A DNA stretch of 25,937 bases from Waddliaceae bacterium (GTDB lineage: Bacteria > Chlamydiota > Chlamydiia > Chlamydiales > Waddliaceae): assembly GCA_963724325.1 (NCBI GenBank), contig CAVRUH010000003.1:1-25937 (forward strand), written 5' to 3'. Position numbers and translations under genes: made by a program. The notes below the pieces were generated by a model that had not been told where the DNA came from, did no database searches, and saw only the letters and a list, made by a program, of their open reading frames with translations. Positions 1,950 through 2,764 of this stretch are shown piece by piece. Positions within the stretch are counted from its first letter, which is position 1. Each line of letters begins with the position of its first letter.

Positions 1950-2477
1950 ATGGAAGATAATAAGGAAATAAAGCGGCTGTTTTTTGGATTTGAGGCGCTG
2001 GCTCCATGGCCAGAGAAGTTGCCTCCAGGAAGGATTCTGGAAGCATCTAATAGACATGCGACTTTTGCTTTCTTAGGGGATATTCACTATCCAAGCTTAG
2101 AGCAAATTTTACCTTCGCTGCCTCTTCCTCCATTTAGAGTTGGGAAGGTGGGATGTTTTTGCAAGTGTCTTTTTCTGCCTCCTAGGCACCCTAATGTTGC
2201 TGCTTGGGAAGTAGAATTCTATGAAGAACGAGAATTGCTTGAAAATTACAATCGATACCTCGTCCAATGGCTTCGAGATAATCAAATTCCTGTGAAAGAG
2301 CATAGCGGTTCCTTCCTTCCTCACGTGACGATCTGCCGTCAGCCAAAGCAACTTGCGATTTGGAAAGAGTCGTTTCAACAGCTACCCGTCATTTTTAAAA
2401 ATTTTCAGCTCTACGGAAAGCATGGGCTCATCACAATATACTCCCATTTGGACCAACCAGCTGATTGCACCCTTTGA
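1950..2477 (+). CDS. thpR: 2H phosphoesterase (LigT/ThpR; 2'-5' RNA ligase / RNA 2',3'-cyclic phosphodiesterase), probably the N-terminal half of a fusion with archease
   Basis: It has N-terminal RLFFG and two HxT motifs (RHATF, PHVTI). The C-terminal LYES..QY motif appears in the +1 frame after a likely extra G at 2415-2416. Confidence 0.85.
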   Translation: MEDNKEIKRLFFGFEALAPWPEKLPPGRILEASNRHATFAFLGDIHYPSLEQILPSLPLPPFRVGKVGCFCKCLFLPPRHPNVAAWEVEFYEERELLENYNRYLVQWLRDNQIPVKEHSGSFLPHVTICRQPKQLAIWKESFQQLPVIFKNFQLYGKHGLITIYSHLDQPADCTL

Positions 2478-2764
2478 AGGAGCTAGATCATACTGCAGAC
2501 GTAGCCTTTTTAGTCCGAGGTGAGAGCTTACAAGAGCTCCATTTGCACGCAAGAGTAGCTTTGGCTTTCCTTTTCCCTCCAATTCTTCAATATTTTTCAG
2601 CAAAATCGCAAGTCAACGGAATCGATGATATTGTCATAGATCTCAATGATATCGTCATGCATTGTGATCGTGATGTCGGATGTCCTTTCAAAGCGGTTAG
2701 TTTTCACGGTGAAATCAAGAGAGGAAAATCAATTTTAAGTTGGGAGATGATTATCGATGTCTAA
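2465..2764 (+). CDS. Archease domain (RtcB activator), probably the C-terminal half of a 2H-archease fusion
   Basis: It has the ELDHTADVAF N-terminal motif, KAVSFH and a C-terminal IIDV*. The only start upstream of these motifs is TTG with no evident RBS. The gene lies directly upstream of rtcB. Confidence 0.85.
   Translation: MHPLKELDHTADVAFLVRGESLQELHLHARVALAFLFPPILQYFSAKSQVNGIDDIVIDLNDIVMHCDRDVGCPFKAVSFHGEIKRGKSILSWEMIIDV

Follow-up and report, generated by a model that had tools for sequence, protein, structure and literature searches.

The closest described system is the archease-rtcB "tRNA splicing operon" of Pyrococcus horikoshii and of diverse bacteria and archaea, in which the genes for archease and the RNA ligase RtcB are adjacent; the P. 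horikoshii archease requires His9, Asp12, Lys117, Asp141 and Ile142 (PMC3973293). In the human RTCB-Archease activation complex (PDB 8ODO), a third manganese, Mn(C), is bound via D51, D178 and the terminal carboxyl of archease, and archease and RNA are mutually exclusive at the RtcB active site (10.1101/2023.03.30.534986). In the E. coli rtcBA operon, the partner of RtcB is also an enzyme that works on the 2'/3'-phosphate ends of RNA: RtcA helps RtcB by converting a 3'- or 2'-phosphate into a cyclic end, and the problem that a 2'-phosphate poses for RtcB is framed in the same paper (PMC3854526). The ThpR/LigT branch of the 2H phosphoesterases carries two HxT motifs extended as HxTxxF and HxTxxR, and E. 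coli ThpR is a stand-alone monomer of ~20 kDa that leaves a 2'-phosphate; in the account given in PMC4201822, the physiological use of bacterial ThpR/LigT is a matter of speculation only.

We analyzed the window, i.e., the whole stretch of 25,937 nucleotides from a Waddliaceae bacterium, in which a 2H phosphoesterase-archease fusion gene of 270 aa (1950-2764) is followed by rtcB (2757-4179), both on the forward strand, as are all features of the locus given below. The locus shares the archease-rtcB adjacency with the described operon, together with counterparts of His9, Asp12, Lys117, Asp141 and the terminal residue; it differs in that its archease is ~98 rather than ~140 aa long, carries an N-terminal 2H enzyme and has a fixed 8-nt overlap with rtcB inside its metal-binding D-V terminus (PMC3973293). 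In contrast to the "tRNA splicing operon" (PMC3973293), no convincing intron-containing tRNA was found in the Waddliaceae genome, and tRNA splicing was rejected as the purpose because the genome's tRNAs included only two doubtful long-intron calls. The locus is apparently a conserved variant of the archease-rtcB operon that is undescribed in the literature searched: no description of the fusion was found there by title or start of abstract, a search whose coverage excluded the Burroughs and Aravind 2016 survey and its supplement, which may list the fusion. Passages of PMC4275035, a paper matching archease and chlamydia, hold nothing on the fusion.

The fused gene, its two domains and RtcB

The gene is broken in the window contig. 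A sequence-only reading of the window had proposed that a single fused polypeptide would appear if two bases were removed, and a copy on another contig of the assembly (C1), which has neither base, is one 270-aa open reading frame (ORF; L020:1498-2310) that includes the predicted peptide. Short-read contigs and homologs also support the intact gene. The LigT_PEase and Archease Pfam families were found on one chain; among 18 aligned members, Archease was matched in 18/18 and LigT_PEase in 17/18. A profile search of solved structures placed E. coli ThpR/LigT at the top for positions 3-166 and the T. maritima archease for positions 172-203. The fusion was then compared by fold using an AlphaFold2 model (pLDDT 93.7, pTM 0.90).

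The first domain (residues ~1-172; 1950-2466) matched PF02834 with an E value of 3e-4. Residues 1-172 of the model aligned with Deinococcus drCPDase (5H7F; Z 16.1, rmsd 3.0, 166 residues aligned) and with E. coli ThpR (4QAK; Z 13.9, rmsd 2.9, 156 aligned), and Foldseek agreed for this domain (E 1e-7 to 7e-7). The HxTxxF motif (H36, T38 and F41; 2055-2072) and the HxTxxR motif (H125, T127 and R130; 2322-2339) were invariant in the 18 aligned members, i.e., both motifs are extended as in ThpR (PMC4201822). In a larger set of loci, H36 and T38 were kept in 77/79, the other two being gaps, and H125 and R130 in 79/79, loci that had been picked with a pattern covering the second motif. The 2H half is ~20% identical to ThpR and drCPDase, with which it shares the 2H fold and both motifs, and scores below the TIGR02258 equivalog cut-off (25.6 bits vs 65.7). 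By motif and predicted fold, the 2H half is therefore ThpR-like but outside the ThpR equivalog family, and unlike ThpR it is fused to archease and linked to rtcB.

The second domain (residues ~173-270; 2467-2764) is a shortened archease of ~98 aa, about 40 residues shorter than the canonical stand-alone protein (~140 aa, ~16 kDa), and its position at the C-terminus of the chain leaves the D-V end with a free carboxylate. Its match to PF01951 was borderline (25.7 bits vs a cut-off of 25), and when the fusion profile was matched against that of one stand-alone archease (L117), the result was weak (a probability of 9%); therefore, the archease call rests on structure and motifs. Residues 172-270 aligned with TM1083 (1J5U; Z 9.4, rmsd 2.8, 85 aligned) and with human archease in the RTCB complex (8ODO_B; Z 8.2, rmsd 3.5, 94 aligned). 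H180 and D183 of the HTAD motif (2489-2500), K247 (2690-2692), D269 and the terminal V270 were invariant in 18/18 members. By motif alignment to TM1083 and to the residues reported in PMC3973293, H180 and D183 would be the equivalents of P. horikoshii His9 and Asp12, K247 that of Lys117, D269 that of Asp141 and V270 that of Ile142. Judged by these equivalences, the ~98-aa archease retains every known RtcB-activating residue. Pfam matches, motifs and fold alignments thus agree with both domain assignments made from the sequence.

The rtcB ATG (2757-2759) lies inside the D269-V270 codons and the stop codon of the fusion is at 2762-2764, giving an overlap of 8 nt (2757-2764), in agreement with the overlap of rtcB with the archease stop noted before. 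The rtcB gene (PF01139) is broken by five single-base deletions in the window contig; in the C1 copy it encodes an intact RtcB of 475 aa (L020:78-1505), which is a full-length family match (E 1.9e-151). The metal-binding and guanylylated-His motif residues of RtcB (D93, C96, H204, H235, H325 and H398) were kept in 68/68 homologs.

Modeling of the fusion with RtcB, which the sequence-only reading had suggested, was performed in the presence of GTP and Mn. The complex scored 0.87, compared with 0.00 for the best control; the runs shared at least 94% of contacts, and the pLDDT of the partner was at least 87. The mark used for such scores was reached by 116 of 157 solved pairs and 2 of 215 mismatched pairs, counts that hold only roughly here. 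All confident contacts with RtcB were made by the archease half (residues 177-184, 225-253 and 269-270). Because a similar (human) complex has already been solved, the pass may reflect likeness or memory; the model nevertheless suggests that the shortened, fused archease can still dock on RtcB. As in the human complex of RTCB with Archease, the conserved tip of the archease is predicted to dock into the ligase, and the D/D/terminal-carboxyl metal site of that complex is conserved in the fusion. In contrast to the human complex, the fusion is bacterial, has a minimal archease and an extra catalytic domain, and comes with no tRNA-ligase complex subunits (10.1101/2023.03.30.534986).

Distribution of the fusion and its linkage to rtcB

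A search with the 2H part, covering proteins up to 272 aa, gave 18 non-self hits, of which 17 were 261-272 aa long and one was 161 aa; 17 aligned over both domains. The fusion falls in an ESM Atlas cluster of 254 members (score 0.94), most commonly from Chlamydiota and carrying both Pfam families. In a 50%-cluster library, 236 hits were below 1e-30 and the best 150 were mostly full-length fusions. In a separate set of loci, among the best 80 of 150, both domains lay in one ORF in all 80 (two with an upstream break), and rtcB was downstream in 77, absent in one and could not be seen in two where the downstream DNA was missing. The ATGnnSTOP ending, i.e., the overlap with rtcB, was present in 79 of the best 80. 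Because the patterns used to select these loci span the C-terminal motif and the second 2H motif, conservation of these motifs among them is partly circular; the 18-member alignment and the profile count over genomes are free of C-terminal selection bias.

In that count, the fusion profile matched 132 of 300 scored genomes of the phylum, and rtcB was directly downstream of the fusion in 115 of the 132, which supports the earlier proposal of an unusual architecture coupled to rtcB. RtcB was found in 130/301 genomes; 123 genomes had both, nine the fusion only and seven RtcB only. One family of 1.0-1.3 Mb genomes had neither (0/29 and 0/30). Most records with a name belong to Chlamydiota (Parachlamydiaceae, Simkaniaceae, Waddliaceae, Rhabdochlamydiaceae and others), and some records labeled Verrucomicrobia by their depositors nest among Chlamydiota in the tree; judged by these matches, the window would come from an environmental chlamydia. 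Intact fused homologs beside rtcB are widespread, and a set of homologs with separate genes was not seen. The flanking genes are variable, and the fusion and rtcB move together. The idea of a third partner gene was rejected: besides the two genes and antisense shadow frames, the commonest neighbor occurred in 14/80 loci.

Several loci depart from this arrangement. Two longer proteins, P0132 (596 aa) and P0165 (775 aa), contain parts of the fusion profile and are possibly further fusions or assembly artifacts. A cognate-type rtcB at L119:2466-3827 (G026, 88% complete) has no fusion upstream, and its genome has no fusion match. Directly after rtcB at L118:1373-2518 (G009), a 381-aa ORF is a different archease fusion, which from its motifs we take by eye to be a cytidylate kinase joined to a full-length archease.

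Separate decay of the halves and the proposed role

The halves were compared in 17 fusion copies without adjacent rtcB (L101-L116 and L023); G150 was left out, and in G188 and G006 the non-adjacency looks like contig breaks. At least two of H180, D183, K247 and D269 were lost in 15 of the 17, the archease being intact in the other two (L023 and L115). In the same copies, the 2H site was mostly kept: H125 and T127 in 17/17, R130 in 16/17 and H36 in 15 of the 16 whose N-terminus is present. A quick tree was built from the 2H part alone; L113 and L115 were omitted from it and L023 was labeled coupled although it has no rtcB, and the 14 remaining copies need four changes, at least three of them forced by starred branches. 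Measured on columns taken from the coupled copies, these 14 retained 52.6% of conserved archease columns and 86.5% of conserved 2H columns (vs 96.7% in coupled copies), i.e., there is some drift in the 2H half too. The opposite loss was found in L014 and L007, which have lost both 2H motifs and kept rtcB and all archease residues. Because natural losses occur in opposite directions, the archease half follows rtcB in its retention, and rtcB and the 2H half can each do without the other. The independent decay suggests, from sequence comparison, that the two halves do separable jobs; the natural losses would also mark the residues that serve the ligase, and the ~98-aa domain points to a minimal archease.

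The separation has a limit. Among 100 genomes with a ThpR-like match, 98 were fusion-positive, and only 2 of 168 scored fusion-negative genomes had such a match; therefore, when the module is lost the 2H activity usually goes as well, and the halves are not fully independent. A canonical ThpR coexists with the fusion in eight genomes (8/9 of those with canonical ThpR), which hints at a distinct role for the 2H half. Among the genomes that keep the 2H site without cognate rtcB, five have another kind of RtcB elsewhere, and G004 has both a fusion copy with a decayed archease half and a separate operon. In that operon (L117:2469-5227), rtcB, a P-loop GTPase and a stand-alone archease of 140 aa lie in a row; the GTPase is, by eye, presumably CobW-like. 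The genomes of L111 (G170) and L112 (G089) each have an rtcB-linked fusion copy; L111 and L112 are second copies that have no rtcB and whose archease residues have decayed.

We propose, with a probability of roughly 0.58, that the two genes form a module for RNA breaks, where archease recharges RtcB and the 2H half separately clears cyclic phosphates to 2'-phosphates without feeding the ligase. The catalytic steps are drawn from family biochemistry. The archease half would guanylylate, i.e., recharge, the RtcB of the overlapping gene: its tip (177-184, 225-253 and 269-270) is predicted to dock into RtcB, and D183, D269 and the terminal carboxyl would provide a third Mn site for guanylylation. 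Archease would then depart before RNA binds, and RtcB would reseal paired breaks whose ends carry a cyclic phosphate or 3'-phosphate and a 5'-OH. Meanwhile, the 2H domain would remove loose cyclic-phosphate ends or cyclic nucleotides from the pool, probably opening them to 2'-phosphate. Regiospecificity (2'- vs 3'-phosphate) is not readable from motifs, and the 2'-phosphate product is predicted by likeness to ThpR. A ThpR-type domain would thus reverse the reaction of E. coli RtcA (PMC3854526). Fusion and overlap would fix the joint expression of the three activities, and substrates would be partitioned by competition, not channeling; the mutual exclusion of archease and RNA in the human structure (10.1101/2023.03.30.534986) argues against channeling from a docked 2H domain. 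A repair-versus-discard split is plausible in the form of a competition for ends, but nothing shows the switch proposed earlier.

Known handlers of 2'-phosphates were rejected as too rare: Tpt1 was found in 0/300 genomes and RtcA in 4/301, with none in the Waddliaceae genome (84.6% complete). Therefore, no known route would return an end with a 2'-phosphate to the ligase. The conserved fusion to the activator of RtcB places a ThpR-like enzyme in a defined pathway of RNA repair, and the question of what ThpR is used for becomes testable; if the 2H half simply acts as ThpR, the locus varies a known operon in a neat but modest way.

The separate decay of the halves would also follow if adjacent thpR and archease genes had fused by accident, once in an ancestor, with the 2H half mostly stabilizing the shortened archease and acting on unrelated small molecules such as cyclic nucleotides or signaling dinucleotides. 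In favor of this, the C-terminal segment is about as long in the copies without rtcB, and the pTM of 0.90 suggests that the domains pack; archease has another fusion partner beside rtcB (L118), and the complex model has no confident 2H-RtcB contact, an absence that is in itself no evidence. However, the 2H activity is mostly lost with the module (2/168) and both genes move as a unit among variable flanks, and we consider an accidental fusion unlikely.

A role in linkage proofreading appears slightly less probable. Here, the 2H half would cut 2'-5' phosphodiesters by transesterification to cyclic-phosphate and 5'-OH ends, and the archease-recharged RtcB would reseal them as 3'-5' linkages, so that incorrect linkages would be replaced by correct ones. 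The E. coli enzyme incises 2'-5' and not 3'-5' linkages, with cleavage favored (Arn and Abelson 1996, as cited in PMC4201822), and this specific incision yields RtcB substrates. Proofreading would account for the fusion and for the missing RtcA and Tpt1, and nearly all rtcB-linked copies retain the 2H site. If true, it would be the first physiological pathway for the ThpR/LigT family and would explain a 2'-5' nuclease/ligase activity that is 40 years old. However, according to PMC4201822, water is the preferred nucleophile on single-stranded RNA and no 2'-5'-linked RNA is known in E. coli. In addition, the 2H site persists in at least three lineages without cognate rtcB, where it would cut with no resealing partner at the locus.

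Some 2H enzymes, e.g., yeast Usb1, leave a 3'-phosphate. The sequence-only reading had raised the possibility that the 2H half feeds RtcB; for this, its 2H clade would have the opposite regiospecificity and make 3'-phosphate ends that RtcB ligates directly. The tight genomic coupling to rtcB and the divergence from canonical ThpR would fit such a role. We nevertheless consider it highly improbable: the extended motifs and nearest folds are of the ThpR type, RtcB hydrolyzes the cyclic phosphate itself (PMC4201822), docked archease blocks the RNA site in the human complex, and each half persists alone, L014 and L007 having rtcB and archease without the 2H site.

Frame breaks and haplotype of the window contig

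In a three-frame translation of the window, the 2H ORF begins at the ATG at 1950, and the frame shifts by +1 base twice, near 2415-2416 and at 2477-2480. A TTG is the sole start codon of the archease piece (2465-2764). A genome search with this piece found the second copy in the same assembly, with an open frame of 276 codons: window 1-8101 corresponds to C1:1-8101 reversed, at 99.15% identity, and in the C1 copy a single G is missing at 2416 and a single base at 2477-2478. Two short-read contigs from public runs gave the same result, one for each site. In run X2, a 184-nt contig over 2447-2631 had 0 substitutions and base 2477 was absent; in run X3, a 151-nt contig over 2276-2415 runs on with the letters after 2416. 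This support is one contig each at a depth of 2-3, from two runs of one study; four of the five listed public runs were compared, and their contigs cover only small parts of the stretch.

Two further defects were absent from the sequence-only reading. Fusion residues ~256-261 are scrambled in the window by two indels, at 2716 and 2735, that compensate each other, and the single-base deletions in rtcB are at 2770, 2780, 3102, 3126 and 3322. In addition, the last 3.8 kb of the window matched contig C5 at 90.4% identity with 108 gap bases in 3.87 kb. Three window genes, which by eye we take to be carB, ftsI and murE (8230-11387, 22295-24239 and 24438-25570), are each in several ORF pieces.

These data indicate that the frame breaks stem from read errors, the window being a strain haplotype of low quality, and that the fusion is real. 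With 55 substitutions relative to the C1 copy, the window is a distinct strain haplotype. The contig as a whole resembles a low-accuracy haplotig; therefore, other "split gene" findings on it are suspect. The probability that the indels are genuine, with this strain's copy a decaying pseudogene or two separate genes, is close to negligible: the 55 substitutions do mark a distinct haplotype and a few relatives (G001, G082 and G248) have stops or shifts in the gene, but the extra bases sit where both copies are otherwise identical, several other window genes are also fragmented, no homolog set with separate genes was seen, and the bases are missing from the duplicate copy and from both short-read contigs, so this reading was rejected. 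Programmed frameshifting is unnecessary because the duplicate copy and the homologs are single-frame.

Of the 55 substitutions, 50 fall in 2710-3963, a tract of 1.25 kb spanning the end of the fusion and rtcB, and the rest of the 8.1 kb is nearly identical to C1; the rtcB codons that differ comprise 29 synonymous and 11 non-synonymous changes. The tract is likely a recombined rtcB allele exchanged between co-occurring strains.

A scan for promoters and terminators gave counts in line with chance (4 against 4.2 and 3 against 2.3). Between a helicase gene and the fusion, the window contains a near-perfect palindrome of 167 bp (1701-1867) with a predicted hairpin of -117.5 kcal/mol; its relatives occur at more than 20 places on C1, C2, C4, C5, C7, C9 and C11, forming a dispersed MITE- or REP-like repeat family. 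A 3-kb segment of the window (17809-20767) is repeated on C7 at 99.7% and is probably an insertion element, with a transposase-like ORF of 513 aa and an ORF of 222 aa. Finally, two paralogous ORFs of 307 and 311 aa lie in tandem at 15642-17621 of the window; they contain hydrophobic stretches and share ~70% DNA identity over 315 nt.
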